NCBI RefSeq assembly: GCF_000008665.1
Contig: NC_000917.1
Location: 1,800,001-1,832,000, forward strand
From: Archaeoglobus fulgidus DSM 4304
GTDB taxonomy: Archaea; Halobacteriota; Archaeoglobi; Archaeoglobales; Archaeoglobaceae
Length of the DNA: 32,000 bases
Reading direction: 5' to 3'
Positions within the stretch are counted from its first letter, which is position 1; every line of letters begins with the position of its first letter. The notes under the pieces were generated by a model. The model made no database searches and was not told the origin of the DNA. It saw nothing but the letters and a program-made list of their open reading frames with translations. A program made the translations under genes and the position numbers. Positions 2,419 to 25,137 of the stretch are shown here, piece after piece.

Positions 2419-3476
2419 CCAAGCACCTCTTTCAAAGCCTCAAGGAACATGTCGTTTTCCTCTGGCCTTCCAACAGTCACTCTGATGTGGTTACCGCAAC
2501 CAACAAAGCTGCTGCAGTCCCTCACTATAACCCCTCTCTTCAGCAGCTCCTCTGCCAGATTCTCAACGGGGCTCTCAAAGAAGAGGAAGTTCGCCTGTGA
2601 GAGATTTACCTCTACGAGCTTCTTCAACTCTTTGTACAGCCTCTCCCTCTCCGCCTTTATTCTCCCCACACAGCTTCGCATCCACTCCACATCATCGAGA
2701 GCCGCCTCAGCAGCCTTTGCAGCGGGAGTTGAGAGGGGGAAGGGAGTCATTGCCGCCCTGAAGGGGCTAACGAGCCATTCAGGTAGCAAGGCATATCCAA
2801 TTCTCAGGTTCGCCAGCCCGAAGGCCTTTGAGAAAGTTCGGGCAATTACAACATTCTCCGCATCGACGCTAAAGGATACATCGGAAAACTCAACGTAGGC
2901 CTCATCGAGGAAGATAAGGGCATTGGTTGAGTTAACAAGCTCCTCTATTAGCTTAGCATCCTCCGCATTCCCCGTTGGATTGTTGGGATTGCAGATGAGG
3001 ATAATTTTGGTTTTCTGAGTTATGGCATCAAAAATGGACTCATCAATGCGGTAGTTCTCGCCTCTCCTCACCAGAACTTCCTTCCCGCAGCTAAGCTTTG
3101 TTAGAATGTGGTAGTAAGGGAAGGTCGGAATCGGTATGACGACCTCATCCCCCTCGTCTATGAGAATTCTGAAGAGCGTTTCAAGGATTCCGTCAATTCC
3201 TGCCCCCACCACAACTCTATCAGCATCCCATCCAGTGTAATCGGATATCTTCTCCCTCAGCTCCCTGTACTCTGGATTCGGATAGATGTGCAGGTCGGAG
3301 TAGCTCCTGAACGCTTCTATGGCTTTTGGGCTCGGCCCATAGGGATTCTCGTTCGAGGCAAGCTTAACCACTCTTTCAAGGCCGTACTTCCTCTTAACCT
3401 CCTCAATGCTCTTTCCCGGAATGTATTTTGAGAGTTCTGCACACTTCCTCAGCAACCTCTCACCGCACAACCTCAA
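2412..3476 (-). CDS. hisC: Histidinol-phosphate aminotransferase family (class II PLP aminotransferase), paralogue 1
   Basis: 354-aa ORF with YIPGKSIEEVKRKYGL, LASNENPYGPSP, NPNNPTGN and the TFSKAFGLANLRIGY PLP-lysine block. There is no in-frame ATG near the 5' end. Candidate starts are TTG at 3476, 3470 or 3455, so the start is uncertain by up to 21 nt. Confidence 0.85.
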   Translation of the reverse strand: MRLCGERLLRKCAELSKYIPGKSIEEVKRKYGLERVVKLASNENPYGPSPKAIEAFRSYSDLHIYPNPEYRELREKISDYTGWDADRVVVGAGIDGILETLFRILIDEGDEVVIPIPTFPYYHILTKLSCGKEVLVRRGENYRIDESIFDAITQKTKIILICNPNNPTGNAEDAKLIEELVNSTNALIFLDEAYVEFSDVSFSVDAENVVIARTFSKAFGLANLRIGYALLPEWLVSPFRAAMTPFPLSTPAAKAAEAALDDVEWMRSCVGRIKAERERLYKELKKLVEVNLSQANFLFFESPVENLAEELLKRGVIVRDCSSFVGCGNHIRVTVGRPEENDMFLEALKEVLGC

Positions 3477-3609
3477 TCTGCACTATGTCCCAGTCCTCAT
3501 CAACGCCCTTTAGCGTTGAGACGAGAGCCTCAATAACCCTCCCAAACACTTTGGTCACGAACTCGTTCATCTCTATGTCTTCACCATCAACAACAAGCCT
3601 TACCTCCAT
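3460..3609 (-). CDS. Small acidic protein of unknown function (49 aa), translationally coupled to mfnA
   Basis: Hand-translated: MEVRLVVDGEDIEMNEFVTKVFGRVIEALVSTLKGVDEDWDIVQIEVVR, stop TGA at 3462-3460. The ATG at 3609 lies 4 nt after the mfnA stop and is preceded by GGAGGTGAT, a strong Shine-Dalgarno match. It falls below the ORF-track length cut-off. Confidence 0.6.
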   Translation of the reverse strand: MEVRLVVDGEDIEMNEFVTKVFGRVIEALVSTLKGVDEDWDIVQIEVVR

Positions 3610-3613
3610 CCTA

Positions 3614-4717
3614 TCACCTCCTTAAAACCTTCCTGAAATCGCTTATGAAGTTCTTAATAACCTCTTCCGTCACGTGGGGCATAACAACAAATCTTATGGC
3701 CTTTGGCTCCCTGATTGTCGAGATGACCCACCTCATCCTGTAAAGCTCCTCCTTAATCCTTTCAGCCTCATCCGTTCTGAAGGAAACAACGTTCATGACA
3801 GGCTCGATAACGGGCTCAAAGCCCAGATCCCTCATCTCCTCGACGAGGATTCGAGTGTTCTTCAGGCAGTTTTTAACAACCTCCCTCATTCCCTCAAAGC
3901 CCAGAGACTTCAAAACAGCATAGGCTGAGGCCACACCAGTCCCCGGCCTTGTCCCTGTTAAAGTGAATTGAGTTTTTGACGTCAGGTAGGGAGTTTCCAC
4001 CTCCAGAGCCCTCAGGTAGCTCTCATTCCTGAAAATGATTCCCCCAGCAGGGATGGTTGCCATCCCCATCTTGTGGGGGTCTATGGTTATCGACGAAACG
4101 CCCCTATTCTGGAAATCGAAGGGATAAGGATTGTCCATGAAAGGGATAACGAGCCCTCCAAAGGCCGCATCGACGTGAAGCTCAACCTGCCTCTCTTCTG
4201 CAAGCTTCGAGAGCTCCACAATGGGGTCAATCTGTCCAAGCTCGGTCGTTCCTGCAATGCCAACAATTGCAACAGTGTTTTCGTCCATCAAATCCTCAAC
4301 CTGCCCCACGTCAACCTTATACTCCTCATCCACTCCCGCTCTTTTAATTTTAACTCCCAGAATGTCGCCAATTTTCTCAAAGGAGAAGTGAGCAGTTTTG
4401 GGAATTACAATGTTGGGATTTTCCTTCTTCTGAACATTTCTTGCCGCCCTTATTCCCTGAATGTTCGCCTCCGTGCCTCCAGAGCAGATGTAGCCCGCGG
4501 GAGTTTCGCAGTGCAGAATGTCGCCAATTAGCCTCATCAGCTTTGCCTCAAGCTCCACCGTCCCCCTGAAGATTCCGGGGTCGCCAAGGTTCGTCTCGAT
4601 GAACATTCTGTGGGCCTCAACCGCAACTGGATGGGGGACGGTGCACATTGAGCTGAGCACCCTTGAGTAGGGAATGTCCTTCTCCCTGTAAGCTCTCAGC
4701 TCCTCGATGATGTCCAT
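3614..4717 (-). CDS. mfnA: L-tyrosine/L-aspartate decarboxylase (PLP-dependent, methanofuran/CoA biosynthesis type)
   Basis: 367-aa ORF of the group II decarboxylase family. It carries the SGGTEAN block and the DPHKMG PLP-lysine motif, and its size is typical of archaeal MfnA. Confidence 0.85.
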   Translation of the reverse strand: MDIIEELRAYREKDIPYSRVLSSMCTVPHPVAVEAHRMFIETNLGDPGIFRGTVELEAKLMRLIGDILHCETPAGYICSGGTEANIQGIRAARNVQKKENPNIVIPKTAHFSFEKIGDILGVKIKRAGVDEEYKVDVGQVEDLMDENTVAIVGIAGTTELGQIDPIVELSKLAEERQVELHVDAAFGGLVIPFMDNPYPFDFQNRGVSSITIDPHKMGMATIPAGGIIFRNESYLRALEVETPYLTSKTQFTLTGTRPGTGVASAYAVLKSLGFEGMREVVKNCLKNTRILVEEMRDLGFEPVIEPVMNVVSFRTDEAERIKEELYRMRWVISTIREPKAIRFVVMPHVTEEVIKNFISDFRKVLRR

Positions 4718-17275: not shown

Positions 17276-18407
17276 CTTCAGCTTCTCCTGCGTGAGAGTT
17301 GTTTTTGGATGGGGAAGGCTGGAGAGAATTGAGGAGGAGGTTGAGAGGCTTAAGGGAGGAAAGGTGGTGTTTATTGCAGACAGGGCGGTGAGAAAGGCCG
17401 TAGAAGAGCTCAACCTCAGCTTTGACTACGAGATTTTTTCGGATGTTGAGCCTGAACCCGAAATCGGCATTGTGGATGATATCATTGAGAAATTCAGCTT
17501 CGACACGGTTGTTGGCGTTGGTGGGGGCAGCACCCTCGATGTTGCGAAGCTCACGGCAGTTGCTGCGGGGGAAAAAGCTAAGGCTGTGGAGCTGGTGGGG
17601 AAAAAGCTGCCCGAAAGGAAGTGCAAGCTCCTTCTCTGCCCCACTACAGCAGGAACCGGCTCTGAGGTGACGAAGCTAGCGGTTTTCAAAATCCCTAAAA
17701 GAGAAGTGAAGTACGTTTTCGATGACGAGAGCCTTTATGCGGATATAGCCATCATCGACCCGAAGCTCACACTCTCCTGCCCTCCTCATGTGACAGCAAG
17801 CTCAGGGATAGATGCTTTCTGCCACGCTATCGAAGCGTACACGTCCCTTTTCTCAAACCCAATCTCCGACATGTTTGCGGAGAAGGCCATTGCAATTATT
17901 CCAAAAGCTCTCAGGGAGGCTTACGCCAATGGAGAGAATGTGAGGGCAAGAACAGACATGTCTTTTGCCTCCCTCCTTGCCGGAATCGCTTTCAACTCAG
18001 CGGGCACAGGGCTGGGACACGCTTTGGGGTATGCGCACAATCACATTCACAACAGCCCCCATGGCAAGAGTGTTGGTATAACAATGCCCTACGTTCTGCA
18101 GTACAACGCCATTGCAGACCTTGAGAAGCACGCCAGAATAGCGAGGGCTTTGGGTGAGAGTGGCTCCTCTTTAAGAGAAACTGCACTAAGAGCAGGAATT
18201 GGCTTTGCCAAACTTCTGAAGGATTTAGGAATGCCCCACAAACTGAGCGACGTTGGTGCTGGAGAGGATGACATTGAGAAGATAGTGGACAGGATTTTCT
18301 TGAGCGAGAAGCACGTTCGGAGGAATCCAAGAGTTGTAAGGAGAGAGGAGATGTATGATGTGGTGAGAAAATCAATCCACGGAATCCTTCGGGAAGAAGA
18401 GTACTGA
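17268..18407 (+). CDS. Iron-containing (group III) alcohol dehydrogenase
   Basis: 379-aa ORF with GVGGGSTLDVAKL, the His cluster GLGHALGYAHNHIHNSPHG and DAFCHAIEAY. The TTG start is preceded by GGAGGTG (17255-17261) and overlaps the TauE stop by 8 nt. Confidence 0.85.
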   Translation: MDSFSFSCVRVVFGWGRLERIEEEVERLKGGKVVFIADRAVRKAVEELNLSFDYEIFSDVEPEPEIGIVDDIIEKFSFDTVVGVGGGSTLDVAKLTAVAAGEKAKAVELVGKKLPERKCKLLLCPTTAGTGSEVTKLAVFKIPKREVKYVFDDESLYADIAIIDPKLTLSCPPHVTASSGIDAFCHAIEAYTSLFSNPISDMFAEKAIAIIPKALREAYANGENVRARTDMSFASLLAGIAFNSAGTGLGHALGYAHNHIHNSPHGKSVGITMPYVLQYNAIADLEKHARIARALGESGSSLRETALRAGIGFAKLLKDLGMPHKLSDVGAGEDDIEKIVDRIFLSEKHVRRNPRVVRREEMYDVVRKSIHGILREEEY

Positions 18408-18947
18408 GAAGCCATTCACGGTTATCGTGTCAACCTGCATCTCGTACTTTTTGCTGTAATACTTCTCGTAGAGGTATTTCAGCAGATTGAGGTGAAGCTC
18501 GGAGACTGCTTTGCTCCTCATGTCGTGGTAGAAGACGAAGTTTAGCTTCTCCCCATCCTTCTGCACTTCAGCATGCTCCGCCCTGTTCAGCAGATTCCAG
18601 AGCCTTGCCACAACGCTGAGAAGCTCCTCAAAGTCGAGGTCGCTTATGGGCTTCTTTGAAAGATACTTGACGGCCATCTCGATCATACTCTCCCTTACAG
18701 CCCTCTCAGCATCTCCCTCAACCAGTGCGGTGTAGTGGTCCTTCGCACAGAGCATGAAGTTGAGCTCCCTGATAAAGGCTAGAATCAACAAATCCTCATC
18801 TCCCAACCTGCTGAAGTTCTCCGAGGTGTAAAGCAAATCCACTGCTTTCTCAACAACGCTGCTTGTGGTTCGATGCTTTTTCTTCAAATCCTCAATTTTT
18901 CTGGCCGTTTCAGATGACACTGTGGTATGGAGCCTGATTTTTACCAT
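18372..18947 (-). CDS. Ribbon-helix-helix (CopG/Arc-like) N-terminal domain protein with an uncharacterised roughly 140-aa C-terminal domain
   Basis: 191-aa ORF. The N-terminus VKIRLHTTVSSETARKIEDLKKKHRTTSSVVEKAVDLLY fits a strand-helix-helix pattern. It is divergent from the actin-like gene, and its 3' end overlaps the convergent ADH gene by 36 nt. Confidence 0.55.
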   Translation of the reverse strand: MVKIRLHTTVSSETARKIEDLKKKHRTTSSVVEKAVDLLYTSENFSRLGDEDLLILAFIRELNFMLCAKDHYTALVEGDAERAVRESMIEMAVKYLSKKPISDLDFEELLSVVARLWNLLNRAEHAEVQKDGEKLNFVFYHDMRSKAVSELHLNLLKYLYEKYYSKKYEMQVDTITVNGFSVLFFPKDSVD

Positions 18948-18967
18948 GGTTTTTATCCTCCCACTCC

Positions 18968-19000
18968 CTTAAAAACCTATCCCGAAGAAATTTTTTATAT
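18968..19000. promoter_or_regulatory. Back-to-back TATA boxes in the 72-bp divergent region (minus-strand TTTTTAAG at 18968-18975; plus-strand TTTTTATAT at 18992-19000)
   Basis: Each element is centred about 24 nt from its start codon (ATG 18947 minus; ATG 19020 plus). This implies two leaderless transcripts from a compact shared control region. Confidence 0.5.
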
Positions 19001-19019
19001 TGGCAAATGTACTGAAAAC

Positions 19020-20018
19020 ATGCAGCCTGTTGGTCTTGACATTGGCACGAACTACACCAAGATTACGGCGGATGGGAAAAATGTTCTGCTTTACCCCTCA
19101 ATCGTAGCTTACGGTGAGGAGAAGGACTGGAGCCTTAAGGGAGAGACGAAGAGCGTTTATATCGGTGATGAAGCTTTGTCCATAGTTCAGTCTATGGAGA
19201 ATGTTGAAGTTCTCCGACCCCTTCACGAGGGCAGGGTTCTGCATACATCCTACCTCGAACTTGCGAAATACGGTCTGAACAAGCTCAAAGTGAAGGACGG
19301 CCTAATAGCGACCGGACTTCCTGTTAAATCGTCAAAAAAGGAGAGAGAAGAACTGAAAAGGGAGCTGGAGTCTGAGCTAAACTCAAAGGTCCTGATATTT
19401 CCGGAGCCTGTCGGAACCATGGCCTACATGGGAATGGAGACCGGAGTGTGCGTGGATATTGGCTTTGGAACGACCGATGTTCTCGTGATTGCGGACATGG
19501 AGTATTTAAAGGGAGACACGATGCTCATGGGCGTTGACAAGCTCTACGAGAATTTGGAGGTAGCTGTGAGAAACAGGATAGGAATAAGCATCACTCCGGA
19601 AGAGATGACGAAGCTTCTCACAACCGAAGGCTACGAAATTGGAAGAATAAGGGGTGGAAAGAAAGTTAGCGTCAGCAGAGAAGAGATCATGCCAGAATAC
19701 GAAGGCTACGTCAAAACCTGGGTGGAGAGAATTGCGAGCAGGGTCAAGCTCGTTCTTGAGGGGCTCTCGACAACACTTGTGGAGAACTTTGCAATAACAG
19801 GCGGTGGAAGCATGCTGCCCGGAGTTTACGAGATGTTCAAGGAAAGCTTCAGCGATATTGGAGACGTCAAAAGACCGGATGAACCGATAAAGGCGAACTC
19901 CATTGGATACTACATCCTTGCGAAGTCTCTTGTAGTAGAGGCTGAGACGGAACAGAGTGGCGATGCCGAAATTCTCGATGCAGATGACAAAAAGAAGGGG
20001 AGGAAGGGCAAGAAATGA
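19020..20018 (+). CDS. Actin-fold ATPase, ParM/StbA-like (archaeal actin-like protein)
   Basis: 332 aa from ATG 19020; the track ORF starts at 18927, but that extension crosses the promoter. Actin-fold motifs appear in order: phosphate-1 GLDIGTNYTK, IATGLPV, FPEPVGTMAY, phosphate-2 CVDIGFGTTDV, adenosine ITGGGSMLPG, and ANSIGYY. The C-terminal tail is charged: [13 protein letters not shown]. Confidence 0.7.
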   Translation: MQPVGLDIGTNYTKITADGKNVLLYPSIVAYGEEKDWSLKGETKSVYIGDEALSIVQSMENVEVLRPLHEGRVLHTSYLELAKYGLNKLKVKDGLIATGLPVKSSKKEREELKRELESELNSKVLIFPEPVGTMAYMGMETGVCVDIGFGTTDVLVIADMEYLKGDTMLMGVDKLYENLEVAVRNRIGISITPEEMTKLLTTEGYEIGRIRGGKKVSVSREEIMPEYEGYVKTWVERIASRVKLVLEGLSTTLVENFAITGGGSMLPGVYEMFKESFSDIGDVKRPDEPIKANSIGYYILAKSLVVEAETEQSGDAEILDADDKKKGRKGKK

Positions 20019-20542
20019 AGATAACCGTAGAAATTCCGCCTGACATGGAAAAGCTTCTGGTGAAAAAGTGCGAGGAGTCAGGAGTATCTCCTTCGGAGTT
20101 CGTGTACCTCCTTCTTGAGTGGTATTTCTTCAAGAGGGGCAAGAAGGCAGAAACAACTGGTGAGCTCAACGAGTTCCTCAGAGTGGCCAAGGAAGTGGCT
20201 GACGAAAGAGTGAGGTTCTGCAAGTTCAGCGATGGAGCCTACTGCGCCATTGAAACCTTCGAAGATGTGTTTTCCGATAAAGAGCCCACGCCCATCTCCC
20301 CATACCGCTGCCTCTTCTGCCTTTACTATGTGGACAAGAGAAAAGATAAAAGGAGAACGGAGTTCAGGGAGCTGACTGAAGCCAAGATGTACGATTTGGC
20401 AAAGATCGCTGCAAAGTTTGTAGTGGAGCTCTACGGAGACAGGCTCGGCTACAGGCCTAAAACGAAGTCTGAGGAAATAGTGGAGAAACAAGAGAAAAAG
20501 GATGAGAAGCTCCCCAAGGTTAAGAAACTTCTCGATTGGTAG
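20015..20542 (+). CDS. Ribbon-helix-helix protein with a central four-Cys motif (possible ParR-like adaptor)
   Basis: 175-aa ORF with an ATGA start/stop overlap with the actin-like gene. The N-terminus [37 protein letters not shown] fits an RHH. The central region has C-x7-C (CKFSDGAYC) and CxxC (CLFC), and the C-terminus is Lys/Glu-rich. Confidence 0.55.
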
Positions 20543-21398
20543 AGTTGGGCTGAACATAAACGGAGATTTAAGCGAGAAAGAAATAGAGGAGAGAGTCAGA
20601 ATTGCCGAGAGAGCGGGAGTGAGAGTTATCTGGATTGGGGAGTTTGAGGGTTTCCAGGATCCATTCAGCGTTGCAGAAACTGTGAGCTCTCGCAGCCAAA
20701 TGTGGGTTGGATTCGGAGTGCTCTCAGCGCAGAAGGGCTGCGAGAGGATAATCGCAGAAGTTGAGGAGTTGAGGAAAAGACATGGCGACAGGTTCATTGT
20801 GGGAATCGGTGCGGGGAGCTATCAAAGCCCGAAGGAAGGGTACAGGAAGATGAGAAGATGCGTGGAGTTTCTGAGAAACGCTGAATTCCCCGTTGTTGTC
20901 GGGGCAAGCTCACCCGGAACTGCATCCCTCTCAAAAGAGGTGGATGGCGTTCTTTTTAACTCCGTCAAGGAGGAGTTTATCTCATGGCTTCTCCGCTTTA
21001 CTAACACCGCCTTCAAAGCCGCCTACGGCCCGGCATTGATTTTACCGAGCAGCAACGAAGAAGATTTACTTCTTGCAGCCGCAATTGTCTTCACGGGAAG
21101 CAAAAGGCTCATAGCGGAGTTTAGATTTGAGGAGGTTGCGAAAGAGCTTTCAAAGGTGGACATAATGTCTCTGGTGAGGGCAAGATGGGAGGGGAGGAGC
21201 ATAGCAGGTGAGGAGGGGGCTGAGATTCTCTTCAGGCATAGGGAGTTTTTACTGCAGAACTTCACCATAAGCGGAGATGTGGGGGAGGTAAGGAGAAGAA
21301 TAAAATCGTTGCTCAATATCTGCGACCACGTGGTGCTCGCAGACCCCTTCTTTCGGGATGTTGACTCGGTCAGAAGGTTGAAAGAAGTGGTTGTATGA
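20502..21398 (+). CDS. Luciferase-like (LLM) oxidoreductase, F420-dependent Mer-related family
   Basis: 298-aa ORF with blocks resembling methylene-H4MPT reductase relatives ([30 protein letters not shown]...[17 protein letters not shown]). Its start overlaps the upstream gene by 41 nt, and no alternative start lies downstream before the conserved N-terminal strand. Confidence 0.6.
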
Positions 21399-22423: not shown

Positions 22424-22965
22424 AAGAGGTCTTCAGCCTTTATAATCTCAACGCCGTCAACCTTCATCTTCCTGTCGCTAACGACCTTTGCTTTCAGCTT
22501 TTTTGCAGCAGCAATGCTTTCTGCAAGCTCAACACCGTGATTTAGGTACTTTGCAACCTCTTCATCAGAAACGTCAACTATTTCGAGATTCATCCTTGCT
22601 CCAACTTTTGGTGGGAGGTTTCGGTAGCTCTGCCTTGTTATGTAAATCTTTCCGCCGTAATTCCTCTTCATCAGCTCCATAACACCCTTTGAATCCGCCA
22701 CGATTCTCGTGGGCAGCTCGGGCAGCGGCATTGAGAGCAGAATGTAAACTCCAGCGGTCATCAAAACCCAGATAGCAATGAGGGAGACTATTGCAACAAT
22801 TCCCCTCATAAACTCCTCAAGCCTTATTACATTGAGAAGGACGAGGGCGAGGAAGCCGAATAGCACGAAGGAGGTTGAAATGAGCACAGCAGCAATGGTG
22901 TCTCTCCTCTTCACTTCTTTCACCAGTTCCTCAAGCACCACTTCAAACTCATCCAAATCAACCAC
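22420..22965 (-). CDS. Membrane protein (2 TM) with a C-terminal cytoplasmic domain paralogous to the tail of the upstream 493-aa protein
   Basis: 181-aa ORF with a GTG start overlapping the upstream stop by 8 nt. TM segments are AAVLISTSFVLFGFLALVLLNV and IVAIVSLIAIWVLMTAGVYILL. The C-terminal domain contains the YGGKIYIT, DEEV and AESIAAA blocks. Confidence 0.6.
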   Translation of the reverse strand: MVDLDEFEVVLEELVKEVKRRDTIAAVLISTSFVLFGFLALVLLNVIRLEEFMRGIVAIVSLIAIWVLMTAGVYILLSMPLPELPTRIVADSKGVMELMKRNYGGKIYITRQSYRNLPPKVGARMNLEIVDVSDEEVAKYLNHGVELAESIAAAKKLKAKVVSDRKMKVDGVEIIKAEDLF

Positions 22966-24439
22966 CTCTCAACAGCAAGGGCACACATCCGTTCCTTACG
23001 GCTATTTCCGCCACCTCCTTTTTAGTCGTTGCCAGCGGCCTCTTTATCATAATCGCCGCAGCAATAGACTCTGCATGTTCCCTTCTCAACCCCATACCCA
23101 CGAACCTCTCAACCAGTTCTTCATCAGGCGTTATAATAATGCTTCCTGGCAACGCGTTTGATGGGGTGGTGTATATTCTTCTGCCATAAGCTCTCAGAAG
23201 AGCGTAGTTCTGGGCGTTGACGGCATCAGAGGTAACCACAACACCCCTCCTCGTCATTAAGGGGACGAAGACAATGGACATGAAGAGGGCGTAGGCTGCT
23301 GGTAGCATCATGGCTATGTATCCTTCAACGATTTCAGCAGGAATTTCGGGGACGGTTATTGCAGGCAGTGAAACGGATACCGGCAGAGAAATCGGCTGGG
23401 GTTGAGCTGGAGGTTGAACTGGAGGCTGCACTGGTGGTTGAGCGGGTGGTTGCACGGGCGGTAGCACTGGAGGTGGCGGGCCACCTCCACCACCTCCTCC
23501 GCCACCGCCGCCTCCGGGGGGCGTGAACTGGTAGCCAAGACCTTTCAGCACAGCTTCACCCACGATGTAGTTACCATCAGAAAATGTTGCAGGGAAAATC
23601 GTTACCTCGCACTGCCCTGCCAGCCTTGCCTTTGCCCTTGCGTAGAAAACGGGTGTTTTGTCACTCTCCACAACGCTCTGGAATGTTTTGTTCTCTCCTG
23701 CCGAAAGCTGGAAGGTTTCATTGTAAAGCGATTCTCTGTCGGTGAAGGTGTAGTCATCTATCTTCAGCACATACCACGCCTCAAAGCTAACATTCACATC
23801 CTGAGCGAGCGGGTTCTGAATGCGGAAGGTAGCATACCATTCATTTCCAGCTCTCTTCTTCTCAATTGAGAGAAGCAGCTCAACACCATACTCAACCGGC
23901 ACCGAGTCTTTCAGCTTGAATGCGAGAATTGAGTCGGAGATTTCACCTGAGTATCCTGACACGAGGATGGAGAAGGACTTCTCACCTCCAGCAGGGATGG
24001 TTGAGTGGAAGGTCAGCGTATCTCCAGCCTGACAGCCAATGCAGCTTAGAAAATTGGCAGGCTTTGGAATTTCAATGCTGACATCAACATCTCTACTGTA
24101 GCTGTTTTTGATGGTGTAGATGATGTTAACAGCCCCTCCCTGAAGATTTGCAGTGTGTGTGATTGAGAGGGGGAAATTTTGGGGGCTTAGCGTTTTGTAG
24201 GGGTCTATTTTGAGGTTGGAATTGGCTGGGATGAGAGGGATGTAAACGAAGTCGTTTCTGTAGGAGAGGTTAACGTCGTAGAGGTTGAAGGGGTAGGGGT
24301 TGGTGAAGTTGACAACCATCCAGTCCCTTCCGACCTCCTGAGTGGCATTGGGGTAAAAAACCACCTCCCTTATCTCGTAAATGCATGCCATTGAGGGATA
24401 AATCAGGAGGAGCAGGGAGAGAAAAGCCAAGAGTCTCAT
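22958..24439 (-). CDS. Type I membrane protein: signal peptide, beta-rich ectodomain, Gly12/Pro-rich stalk, TM helix and a roughly 110-aa cytoplasmic domain
   Basis: I place the start at ATG 24439 (MRLLAFLSLLLLIYPSMA, a signal peptide). This ATG forms an ATGA overlap with the upstream stop. The track extension to 24592 lies inside the upstream gene. The ectodomain has 6 N-x-S/T sequons and CARDB/DUF11-like strands (IPAGGEKSFSILV). The TM segment is GYIAMMLPAAYALFMSIVFVPLM. Confidence 0.65.
   Translation of the reverse strand: MRLLAFLSLLLLIYPSMACIYEIREVVFYPNATQEVGRDWMVVNFTNPYPFNLYDVNLSYRNDFVYIPLIPANSNLKIDPYKTLSPQNFPLSITHTANLQGGAVNIIYTIKNSYSRDVDVSIEIPKPANFLSCIGCQAGDTLTFHSTIPAGGEKSFSILVSGYSGEISDSILAFKLKDSVPVEYGVELLLSIEKKRAGNEWYATFRIQNPLAQDVNVSFEAWYVLKIDDYTFTDRESLYNETFQLSAGENKTFQSVVESDKTPVFYARAKARLAGQCEVTIFPATFSDGNYIVGEAVLKGLGYQFTPPGGGGGGGGGGGGPPPPVLPPVQPPAQPPVQPPVQPPAQPQPISLPVSVSLPAITVPEIPAEIVEGYIAMMLPAAYALFMSIVFVPLMTRRGVVVTSDAVNAQNYALLRAYGRRIYTTPSNALPGSIIITPDEELVERFVGMGLRREHAESIAAAIMIKRPLATTKKEVAEIAVRNGCVPLLLRGG
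23398..23521 (-). repeat. Coding low-complexity tract: PP-G12-PPPP followed by five PPxQ-type quartets (VLPPVQPPAQPPVQPPVQPPAQPQP)
   Basis: Hand translation of the minus strand. The twelve Gly codons span 23480-23515 with mixed GGN codons, followed by imperfect 12-nt CCNCCNGYNCAR repeats. Confidence 0.85.
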
Positions 24440-25137
24440 TTCCTCAACCCTAAGACAAGCAGAATCACAGCCAATGCGAGCAGCGCTCCCCAGAAGACCA
24501 CGTAACCCCTCACCGGCATCGCTGGTAAGGGCAGAAGCGAGAACTCTGCGGTAAAGAAGGCTATGCTTCCCGCTGGAAGACTTCCCTTCCACATGGGAGT
24601 GTTCTCTGCCGGCGGTTCTGCGTAGGTGAGCTTCCAGTCTGAGTTGACATTGATTTCGAGATTTTTGATGTCCGTGTCGGTGCCAAGGGGTATTGTTACG
24701 GACTTGAAGAGCAAGCCACTGTCAACGATGTCAGCATCATACTCCACGGTGAAGTTCAACTCCCCTTTCGGCTCTATGGGATACCATATCTCGTAAACAA
24801 TCAGCGTGTAGTCCTCCTTCTCCTCAACAGTCACCTTGAAGTTTCTGTTCTCGGAGTAAGCTTTGACATTATAAACCTTCACCGGCTTCCTCTCATCGGT
24901 AAAGGGGATGGAGAGAAAGCCAACCTTAACAGGCTCAGCTTTCTGGAGCCTTATCTCCCCAATACCCGGAACAACGGGCTTGTCAATCAGATTTTTAAGG
25001 GTGACGTCGTAGCGAACATGGGCGAGGGTATCAACATCAACAGTAATCTTGAAATTGGAAATTTCCTCAACCTTCTGAGCCTGAACGGTAGGCAAAATCA
25101 GCAGAAGCGCTATTACCACCCAAACCCTTGCCATCAT
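24436..25137 (-). CDS. Secreted, C-terminally anchored protein (233 aa), beta-sandwich-like
   Basis: It has a signal peptide MMARVWVVIALLLILPTVQA and a C-terminal TM segment YVVFWGALLALAVILLVLGLRK. It has no recognisable catalytic motif. Confidence 0.6.
   Translation of the reverse strand: MMARVWVVIALLLILPTVQAQKVEEISNFKITVDVDTLAHVRYDVTLKNLIDKPVVPGIGEIRLQKAEPVKVGFLSIPFTDERKPVKVYNVKAYSENRNFKVTVEEKEDYTLIVYEIWYPIEPKGELNFTVEYDADIVDSGLLFKSVTIPLGTDTDIKNLEINVNSDWKLTYAEPPAENTPMWKGSLPAGSIAFFTAEFSLLPLPAMPVRGYVVFWGALLALAVILLVLGLRK

Follow-up and report, generated by a model that had tools for sequence, protein, structure and literature searches.

A chromosomal actin gene coupled to a small adaptor-like gene in Archaeoglobi, a candidate ParMR-like module

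Introduction

Is the actin-like gene on the chromosome of the archaeon Archaeoglobus fulgidus DSM 4304 part of a machine that moves or positions a cargo, and which of its neighbors act with it? The question is raised by a 32,000-nucleotide stretch of this chromosome (NC_000917.1, 1,800,001 to 1,832,000; hereafter the window, in which positions are counted from the first letter). An earlier note, made from the sequence alone, had read 3 adjacent genes of the window as a candidate segregation or positioning cassette, in which a ParM/StbA-type actin is flanked by 2 ribbon-helix-helix (RHH) proteins. Our analysis retains 2 of these genes. The region 19020–20542 encodes an actin of a family of its own and, directly downstream, a 175-aa protein with a likely RHH domain, a flexible linker and a predicted terminal helix. 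An RHH-type domain, a flexible linker and a terminal helix encoded behind an actin constitute the ParR-type layout, and therefore we read the pair as a two-gene ParMR-like filament-plus-adaptor module that is fixed and vertically inherited on the Archaeoglobi chromosome, a reading to which we give a probability of approximately 0.5.

The mechanism of DNA segregation in archaea is still poorly understood; for it, a review of the cell cycle in archaea from 2024 gives only the ParA-type SegAB system and ParA/ParB homologs (PMC7617429). In our literature search, chromosomal ParMR systems were described only in bacteria, and we found none in which an actin from archaea is paired with an adaptor of the RHH type. 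New in the candidate type II-like actin/adaptor module described here are the archaeal host, the chromosomal fixation, a four-cysteine (Cys4) insert in the adaptor, and a terminal tryptophan signature.

The actin gene and the adaptor gene form a conserved pair

The 3 open reading frames (ORFs) of the earlier note were recovered at the positions it had given. The features on which the argument rests are as follows.

18372–18947, minus strand: gene of a 191-aa protein, divergent from the actin gene.
18990–19000, plus strand: TATA-like box TTTTTTATATT of the actin operon, approximately 25 nt before the actin ATG.
19020–20018, plus strand: filament-type actin-fold ATPase of 332 aa, assigned to an Archaeoglobi family of its own from profiles, an AlphaFold2 (AF2) model, Foldseek and motifs.
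19953–20015, plus strand: C-terminal tail of the actin (residues 312–332), predicted to be disordered (predicted local distance difference test score, pLDDT, <50), an acidic stretch followed by the Lys-rich KKKGRKGKK.
20015–20542, plus strand: adaptor-like protein of 175 aa, the ATG of which overlaps the actin stop codon (ATGA).
20015–20146, plus strand: RHH-like N-terminal domain of the adaptor (residues 1–44), with strand KITVEIP and helices 9–22 and 26–44, from AF2, Foldseek and Pfam.
20219–20320, plus strand: Cys4 insert of the adaptor, C69-x7-C77 ... C99-x2-C102, a presumed metal site, invariant in 21 homologs.
20507–20539, plus strand: C-terminal peptide of the adaptor after a variable linker, a proposed actin-docking helix, from the conservation of the terminal Trp and AF2.

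The longest reading of the actin ORF has 363 aa and begins at 18927. We agree with the earlier note in placing the start of the 332-aa protein at Met 19020, because 13 of 13 aligned homologs begin at this Met and the TATA-like box lies inside the longer ORF. The overlap between the actin stop codon and the start codon of the 175-aa protein is real, and so is the 72-bp intergenic region between the 2 divergent genes, with an A/T-rich box approximately 25 nt upstream of each of the 2 ATGs. Most of the 59 other loci shown have an A/T-rich box at an equal distance from the actin start. The short distance between the TATA-like box and the actin ATG implies that the actin mRNA would be leaderless or would carry a very short leader.

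A scan of 185,579 species genomes yielded 61 Archaeoglobi actin loci. In 48 of them, the actin gene is followed directly, in the same orientation, by the gene of a homolog of the 175-aa protein (identity 35%–95%); 27 of these 48 pairs share the 4-nt ATGA stop/start overlap, and the gaps in the others range from 0 to 97 nt. The actin and the small adaptor thus stand in one operon, and the overlap suggests coupled, roughly stoichiometric expression. Several metagenome-assembled genomes (MAGs) contain 3 actin paralogs, 2 of which are each followed by an adaptor of their own, and therefore the pair is duplicated as a unit. Loci without a detected adaptor are confined to 3 discrete subclades of a neighbor-joining tree. 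The pair is conserved across the sampled Archaeoglobi, and that of the window is chromosomal, in synteny with hisC and a gene for an oxidoreductase-like protein of the luciferase-like monooxygenase (LLM) type across the group. Of the proposed cassette, an actin with a coupled and conserved downstream partner in the parM–parR order therefore survives; the trio and the ParM/StbA assignment do not, and no centromere repeats were found near the pair.

The adaptor ends in an invariant tryptophan and probably begins with an RHH domain

The 175-aa protein has no match to a curated family in Pfam or NCBIfam, and we examined it through its own homologs. All 47 complete homologs end in a Trp, with the consensus [VI]+KL[LI]xxW; the protein of the window ends in KKLLDW. 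The linker that precedes this peptide is variable, charged and length-polymorphic. In an alignment of 21 homologs, the conserved parts are the N-terminus, including SPSEF...LLEWYF, and a helix near residues 122–144. The 2 Cys motifs pointed out by the earlier note are real: Cys69, Cys77, Cys99 and Cys102 are invariant, as is Cys19. The RHH-like strand varies only by conservative substitutions, and Pro8 and Glu12 are invariant. A Radical_SAM match to the Cys region (E 0.006, below the cut-off, in 6 of the 21 members) was judged to be spurious.

That the N-terminus fits an RHH fold, as the earlier note held, is likely, although not established. The AF2 model (mean pLDDT 64, with 61–73 across the RHH-like N-terminus) shows helices 9–22 and 26–44 after a short N-terminal segment and, at low confidence, a terminal helix at residues 168–173. 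Structural comparison with Foldseek placed mostly RHH proteins at the top of the ranking for the N-terminus, namely CopG (1ea4), Arc (1bdv), VapB, NikR and CdbA. These matches have a target template modeling (TM) score of approximately 0.7 and a root mean square deviation of 1.1–1.5 Å over approximately 40 columns, and all have E values above 1. Pfam matches to the isolated N-terminus are below threshold (RHH_1, E 0.13; TraY, E 0.11), and the family profile found no RHH protein among the PDB sequences. The PDB profile matches of the 2 small proteins are at chance level (YciF, E 0.013; 3re2, E 1).

A terminal tryptophan recurs behind outgroup actins

In the nearest outgroup actins, which scored 146–90 bits in the exhaustive profile search described below, a small gene likewise overlaps or directly follows the actin gene. 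The 5 outgroup loci whose downstream protein ends in Trp are as follows.

L069, in a cluster with a Desulfurococcales MAG member, with chromosome-like neighbors: downstream protein of 101 aa, MSSGRLVATVSLKGELAEKVKSLKELGVDIGALIEVALALLLQ..., ending in ...VEELSDW.
L071, with a phage-type integrase approximately 3 kb away: downstream protein of 87 aa, ...HKVSLWISDSLYVKLQAEMAKNKSQGMNLSDVIRQALVQVF..., ending in ...VNLQKW.
L072, on a virus- or plasmid-like contig of 27 kb: downstream protein of 87 aa, ending in ...AKKIGW.
L074, on a 61-kb contig, where most neighboring ORFs are without a Pfam match: downstream protein of 86 aa, ending in ...YENDW.
L077, on a 7-kb contig: uncalled ORF 3345–3668 of 107 aa, which overlaps the end of the actin gene, ending in ...SFEEW.

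A terminal Trp is thus present in 5 of the 6 evaluable outgroup downstream ORFs, and L075 is the sole exception. Approximately 1.5% of the long ORFs in the fetched DNA end in Trp, and at this background 5 of 6 would arise by chance with P ~4e-9, a value to be read with the resemblance of the L074 and L077 adaptors to each other, which makes the independent lineages somewhat fewer than 6. This recurrence outside Archaeoglobi is the strongest new evidence. By eye, the N-termini of the L069, L071 and L072 adaptors look like RHH domains (that of L072 matches VAPB_antitox at E 0.002, below the family cut-off), and L074 and L077 share another N-terminus.

The outgroup also shows what the Archaeoglobi proteins may have gained. 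The Cys4 motif is missing from the short outgroup adaptors (86–107 aa). No C-terminal tail of any sort follows the actin fold in 4 of the 6 outgroup actins retrieved (P0177, P0178, P0336 and P0342), and P0179 has a different, acidic/Ser-rich tail. The Cys4 insert and the Lys-rich actin tail appear to be Archaeoglobi additions.

A location on a plasmid, phage or other mobile element was found for the outgroup pairs L071 and L072 only, and not for the pair of the window. The L072 contig contains many small co-oriented ORFs without a Pfam match, together with matches to phrog_2045 and to DpdA-type PHROGs, and its actin matches phrog_691, the viral family described below. When viral contigs were searched with the alignment of the actin family, no relatives came up, and PLSDB and INPHARED contained no close ones (at most 26.5% identity). 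We propose that relatives of the module reside on archaeal mobile elements and that the module may have originated from such an element.

Other distant actins were observed as well. That of L075 has a T2SSE gene upstream. Two further ones (24% identity), in a Nitrososphaerota MAG and a Njordarchaeota MAG (L062 5983–8528 and L066 5929–8856), have conserved neighbors in common, namely a convergent gene for a protein of 340–446 aa and a gene for a protein of 159–171 aa with an RHH-looking N-terminus and an acidic tail.

The actin is filament-type and belongs to a family of its own

The motif series described by the earlier note is present in the 332-aa protein, and most of its positions are invariant within the family. 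Across 14 aligned members, there is no variation in the phosphate-1 (DxGxxxxK), phosphate-2 (DxGxGTxD) and adenosine (GGG) motifs. The AF2 model built from these 14 sequences (pLDDT 83; predicted TM score 0.83) has the two-lobed actin fold; just the last 21 residues are disordered, and a subdomain at residues 30–75 has a pLDDT of 54–75. The ordered motifs and the fold place the protein among the filament-forming ATPases of the actin-fold (ASKHA) superfamily. The charged tail of the earlier note is likewise real, and its Lys-rich end is present in 14 of 14 aligned members.

Three Pfam families match above their gathering scores: MreB_Mbl (59.2 bits; gathering score 27), ALP_N (42.9 bits) and MreB-like_C (32.4 bits). 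The top score in any library searched is that of phrog_691 (99.3 bits, E 4.6e-28), a viral actin-like family that matches over its full length (actin residues 2–302 against profile positions 4–323 of 329); PHROGs has no curated cut-off, and the name of this family, "partition protein", is an annotation and not a demonstrated function. The nearest PDB sequences are MreB of T. maritima (2.7e-8), MamK (1.9e-7), BeeR 8r2n (8.5e-5) and Ta0583 (6e-3).

Structural comparison between the AF2 model and the PDB gave 868 Foldseek matches at E ≤ 1e-3. Each of the best 50 is an entry for MreB, MamK, actin or BeeR: the first 24 are MreB/Mbl, followed by MamK, eukaryotic actin and BeeR. The top match is MreB 1jcf (E 1.7e-21, TM score approximately 0.73), and identity to the solved MreBs is 17%–23%. 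Fold matches in BFVD are generic actin and Hsp70 proteins only.

The ParM/StbA membership asserted by the earlier note was not borne out. PF06406 is absent among the Pfam matches at E ≤ 1, the NCBIfam ParM model PRK13917, with a cut-off of 417 bits, reaches 35.7 and covers the C-terminal half only, and no ParM entry is among the top 50 PDB matches; we therefore reject this family call. Two further assignments fall below the curated profile cut-offs. As an MreB ortholog, the protein falls short in NCBIfam (PRK13927, 53.6 versus 293; TIGR00904, 40.3 versus 365.75). As a salactin, it scores 12.7 bits against a gathering score of 27.1 (Pfam PF25229) and 15.5 against 400 (NCBIfam NF053533), over the C-terminal ~80 residues only. 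It also remains far short of the NCBIfam cut-offs for MamK and BeeR.

In the exhaustive profile search of 1.84 billion cluster representatives, the sole full-length representative above 180 bits was P0047 (554 bits), and the Archaeoglobi family thus appears to collapse into one 50%-identity cluster. Below P0047 the scores drop to 146–128 bits, in 4 rare archaeal metagenomic clusters. True MreBs follow only at approximately 1e-15 to 1e-13, and thus do no better than a protein of the Alp7A kind (1.7e-13). The actin is a filament-type protein of its own family, roughly equidistant from the MreB and the Alp/ParM-like groups. In public annotation it is called "rod shape-determining protein MreB" and the adaptor a "hypothetical protein"; the former name is probably misleading for this family.

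Proposed mechanism and points against it

In the mechanism that we infer for the ParMR-like module, the 175-aa protein would dimerize through its N-terminal RHH domain and bind DNA, most likely at chromosomal sites, and the invariant Cys4 insert would hold a structural or sensing metal. The flexible charged linker would present the amphipathic C-terminal peptide (..KKLLDW) to the actin, and the terminal Trp would dock on the filament, in the manner in which ParR docks on ParM by its C-terminal helix. ATP-driven polymerization would move or position the adaptor-bound cargo, so that the pair would work as a cytomotive module.

The chromosome is an attractive cargo, since A. fulgidus cells pass from one chromosome copy to two and back, with a long G2 (PMC1762399), and active segregation would be useful to such a cell. 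A specific version of the ParMR-like reading, which we put forward as tentative and rather improbable, is that the actin machine segregates the 1 or 2 Archaeoglobi chromosomes: the adaptor would sit on distant centromere-like sites, its Trp peptide would capture the ends of dynamically unstable filaments, and these would drive the sister chromosomes apart in G2. In this version, the Cys4 site could couple the machine to the redox or metal state. If true, it would be without precedent, as far as we have found, both as actin-driven segregation of a prokaryotic chromosome and as a type II-like system of archaea. The pair also offers a small, thermostable two-protein system in which actin-based cargo movement in archaea may be tested, and the terminal-Trp signature could be used to detect further actin adaptors in the genomes and mobile elements of archaea.

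Several observations weigh against the ParMR-like reading. (i) No centromere-like iterons were found upstream of, inside or downstream of the operon in searches for direct, inverted and tandem repeats. Like the earlier note, which spoke of the 72-bp region, we found no iterated repeats: no repeat family has more than 2 copies in 18300–20700, and there are no tandem arrays near the actin operon. (ii) Beyond the TATA box, the upstream DNA is not conserved (250 bp compared across 60 loci). (iii) By its modeled fold, the actin is nearest to MreB and MamK, not to ParM. (iv) The RHH assignment of the adaptor is below threshold by sequence and comes from a model with a mean pLDDT of 64. (v) Searches with tblastn found no adaptor homolog in 13 of the 61 loci. 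At least 2 of these (L017 and L026) are on contigs that stop with the actin gene or shortly behind it; elsewhere the actin evidently does without the adaptor. (vi) One paralog clade has type IV filament neighbors (T2SSE, T2SSF and KaiC-like), which hints at a non-DNA role for at least that copy. (vii) The Archaeoglobi-specific Cys4 insert and polybasic tail could be signs that the function changed once the pair was fixed on the chromosome, as happened in cyanobacterial CorMR, the adaptor of which lost DNA binding.

A short TTTCAG run was observed upstream of the actin in L049 and is not common to the other loci.

Alternative explanations

The first alternative holds that the actin is a cytoskeletal protein of the MreB/MamK/salactin kind, with a role in shape, division or organization, and that its operon is autorepressed by the 175-aa RHH/Cys4 protein in response to metal or redox state. 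RHH proteins are typically repressors, and the Cys4 insert could act as the sensor. The lack of centromere repeats, the fold closest to MreB and the public MreB annotation all fit this explanation, and the regulation of ftsZ2 by CdrS, to judge from a title in the reference list of PMC10746226, would be a precedent. An autorepressor alone leaves 2 things unexplained: the Trp peptide, which is invariant at the C-terminus behind a variable linker, and its recurrence in the unrelated-looking short proteins downstream of the outgroup actins. In addition, no conserved operator-like repeat or palindrome was seen in the promoter across the loci, the stop/start overlap suggests coupled, roughly stoichiometric expression of the 2 proteins, and the NCBIfam MreB scores lie far below cut-off. 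We consider this explanation unlikely.

A repurposing of the CorMR type is about equally doubtful. Here a partition-derived module would have been converted so that the adaptor, the polybasic actin tail, or both anchor the filaments, be it at the membrane or at some other machine, in the service of cell shape, the division site or the envelope and not of DNA movement. The precedent is cyanobacterial: CorR lost DNA binding and binds the membrane (10.1101/2025.06.27.661541). The additions seen in Archaeoglobi, that is, the Lys-rich actin tail and the Cys4 insert, are missing from most or all outgroup counterparts; this agrees with such a conversion, as do the failure to find centromere repeats, the T2SSE, T2SSF and KaiC-like ATPase genes beside one paralog clade, and the T2SSE gene upstream of the L075 actin. 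By contrast, no amphipathic N-terminal extension or transmembrane segment is predicted in the adaptor, whose strand begins at residue 2, and the RHH-like strand is conserved, with the 2 invariant residues Pro8 and Glu12. Archaeoglobi are irregular cocci, in which a role in shape is not obvious.

The third alternative is the three-gene ParM/StbA-type cassette of the earlier note, in which both flanking RHH proteins would act with the actin. In the window and its closest relatives, the divergent genes and their common 72-bp promoter region suggest such a unit. The 191-aa gene, however, adjoins the actin gene in only 5 of the 61 loci, all close relatives of the window, and follows another partner. 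In L007 it is displaced by 2.2 kb along with the gene of an iron-containing alcohol dehydrogenase (Fe-ADH). In Geoglobus (L068 8001–8564) its homolog stands with genes for Fe-ADH, TauE, 3-hydroxyacyl-CoA dehydrogenase and an epimerase, as on the left in the window, and there is no actin within the 8-kb flanks. The 191-aa gene tracks the Fe-ADH cluster and not the actin, and therefore belongs to that cluster and not to the actin unit; it is probably a regulator or accessory of the Fe-ADH/TauE/3-hydroxyacyl-CoA dehydrogenase/epimerase cluster, and the promoter region that it shares with the actin gene in A. fulgidus reflects a juxtaposition confined to that lineage. We therefore reject the three-gene cassette, which also lacks the ParM/StbA membership of its actin and which we regard as very improbable.

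By eye, the N-terminus of the 191-aa protein (KIRLHTTVS, then 2 helices) is a plausible RHH domain, and K3, R5, H7, T8 and T9 are invariant. The N-terminal 49 residues have no Pfam match at E ≤ 10 and no PDB sequence match, RHH_3 is touched by 1 of 15 homologs (E 0.06), and profile–profile comparison revealed no relationship between the 191-aa and the 175-aa families. The 191-aa gene is a precomputed member of Pfam PF27313 (AF_0136_C), a family name that implies a paralog, AF_0136, in A. fulgidus. It was also observed that the 191-aa gene is convergent with, and overlaps, the Fe-ADH gene in both the window and Geoglobus, and that the Geoglobus cluster includes a thiamine pyrophosphate (TPP) enzyme.

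Actin-fold ATPases are diverse, and a non-polymerizing enzyme or chaperone of this fold (sugar kinase, BadF/BcrAD or Hsp70-like) with a small gene beside it by chance is the least credible alternative, since filament formers (MreB, MamK, actin, BeeR and Alp) account for every family match that reaches its curated cut-off and for all of the top structural matches, EutJ and GlmL match only marginally, and no match to sugar kinases or BcrAD, one of the cases that the earlier note had named as a refutation, was found.

Comparison with known filament systems

The ParMRC type II system of E. coli plasmid R1 (ParM/ParR/parC), AlfA/AlfB, Alp7A/Alp7R and the prophage system AlpC/AlpA are alike with the Archaeoglobi pair in the operon order of an actin gene followed by a small adaptor gene. 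Comparison with the ParMRC type revealed that (i) the adaptors share an RHH-type N-terminus (only likely in the Archaeoglobi protein), a flexible region and a short conserved C-terminal helix; (ii) related copies of the Archaeoglobi pair lie on virus-like or integrase-bearing contigs, and the profile that its actin matches best is that of a viral "partition protein" family; (iii) the Archaeoglobi actin is not a ParM/StbA protein by profile or fold, and no parC-like iterons were found; and (iv) the Archaeoglobi module is chromosomal and archaeal, its adaptor has the Cys4 insert and an always-terminal Trp, and its actin has a polybasic tail. The hallmark of ParM is a closed β-barrel domain (PMC12270681). 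Deletion of the C-terminal helix of CorR abolishes actin binding, and the same helix mediates the ParR–ParM interaction in E. coli (10.1101/2025.06.27.661541).

Chromosomal ParMR copies exist in bacteria (10.1101/2025.06.27.661541; PMC12270681). The cParMR pairs of Desulfitobacterium and Clostridium and the cyanobacterial CorMR resemble the Archaeoglobi module as chromosomally fixed partition-type pairs that are conserved within a lineage, with lineage-specific additions that suggest a possible change of function. They differ in that theirs are bona fide ParM-family actins in bacteria, and the additions differ as well: CorR gained an N-terminal amphipathic helix, whereas those of Archaeoglobi are the Cys4 insert in the adaptor and the Lys-rich tail of the actin.

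MreB, MamK and BeeR provide the closest solved structures and PDB sequences, and the Pfam MreB_Mbl match is above its gathering score. The low identity (17%–23%), the NCBIfam scores far below cut-off and the RHH-type partner, in place of MreC/MreD/RodZ or MamJ, set the Archaeoglobi module apart from them.

Among archaeal filaments, salactin of Halobacterium salinarum is reported to be closest to MamK; it shows dynamic instability, and when it is deleted, the partitioning of DNA is disturbed at low ploidy (PMC10746226). The same paper reports salactin homologs across Methanotecta, including Archaeoglobi, with poor synteny; the terms operon, adaptor and ParR are absent from it, and its supplement contains no Archaeoglobi identifiers (PMC10746226). 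The Archaeoglobi protein resembles salactin as a chromosomal actin of Methanotecta, and differs in that the curated salactin models score far below threshold on it. The Archaeoglobi family may be the distant relative meant in that paper.

Ta0583 of Thermoplasma has the same two-domain Pfam architecture as the Archaeoglobi actin, ALP_N followed by MreB-like_C, at a marginal sequence match (E 6e-3), and we know of no partner gene for it. Arcadin-2 binds crenactin through a C-terminal peptide, and would be an archaeal precedent for a small neighboring protein that docks on an actin. The arcadins are, to our knowledge, not RHH proteins, and crenactin was not among our top matches by sequence or by fold. 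The Pfam description of MreB-like_C itself reads "Archaeal actin homologue MreB-like".

CdrS, a minimal transcription factor of the RHH type, is encoded upstream of a tubulin homolog. It resembles the Archaeoglobi protein as a small RHH protein of archaea that is tied to a gene of the cytoskeleton, in so far as the cited title below describes it; the Archaeoglobi RHH-like protein differs in that it lies downstream of the actin and has a linker and a conserved terminal peptide. A title cited in PMC10746226 names CdrS as a haloarchaeal RHH protein that regulates the tubulin homolog ftsZ2.

Neighboring genes and minor observations

Some paralogous and adaptor-less loci have neighbors of their own. 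In the paralog clade of L052, L053, L054 and L057 (e.g., L053 876–11727), the pair stands in a conserved cluster, with T2SSF and T2SSE/PilB-like genes divergent upstream, a KaiC-like ATPase gene directly upstream, and a gene for a 1357-aa tetratricopeptide repeat (TPR) protein downstream. In one adaptor-less subclade, a Cys-rich ORF of 65–73 aa without a Pfam match, "FRKPACIE..CCFKCVSGLCPFGYD...", lies just 3′ of the actin on either strand (L019 6744–6965, minus; L023 6416–6613, plus; L029 7101–7301, minus; L034 7210–7422, plus); it could be a replacement partner or unrelated. In a second adaptor-less subclade, a CopG-like RHH gene that starts with MPKITVEIP lies approximately 1 kb upstream of the actin (L020 4661–4966, L024 4747–4938, L026 4209–4415 and L060 4696–4893, all on the minus strand). 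Its scores are below cut-off (RHH_8, E 0.002; RHH_1, E 0.015), and a Cys-rich protein of approximately 190–210 aa is encoded between it and the actin.

The neighbors in the window are ordinary metabolic genes, namely those of Fe-ADH, the LLM-type oxidoreductase-like protein and hisC. The LLM/F420-type oxidoreductase-like ORF (20502–21398, plus strand; Pfam Bac_luciferase, 23 bits, below cut-off) overlaps the 3′ end of the adaptor gene. An ORF of this type follows the adaptor in approximately 30 Archaeoglobi loci, and in about a dozen of those hisC comes next.

In the database comparison, the 191-aa protein of the window is 100% identical to an A. fulgidus entry, and the best identities are 89% for the actin and 93% for the adaptor. 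Either the exact actin and adaptor sequences are absent from the collection searched, or the strain differs from the sequenced ones in the actin and adaptor genes.

Farther downstream, an ORF of 544 aa without a Pfam match (22958–24592, minus strand) encodes 12 consecutive Gly and, after them, (PPxQ)n repeats. The repeats at 23395–23516 in this ORF were identified by Tandem Repeats Finder (TRF) as tandem repeats of 12/24/36 nt, and they may form a low-complexity linker of an envelope or secreted protein.

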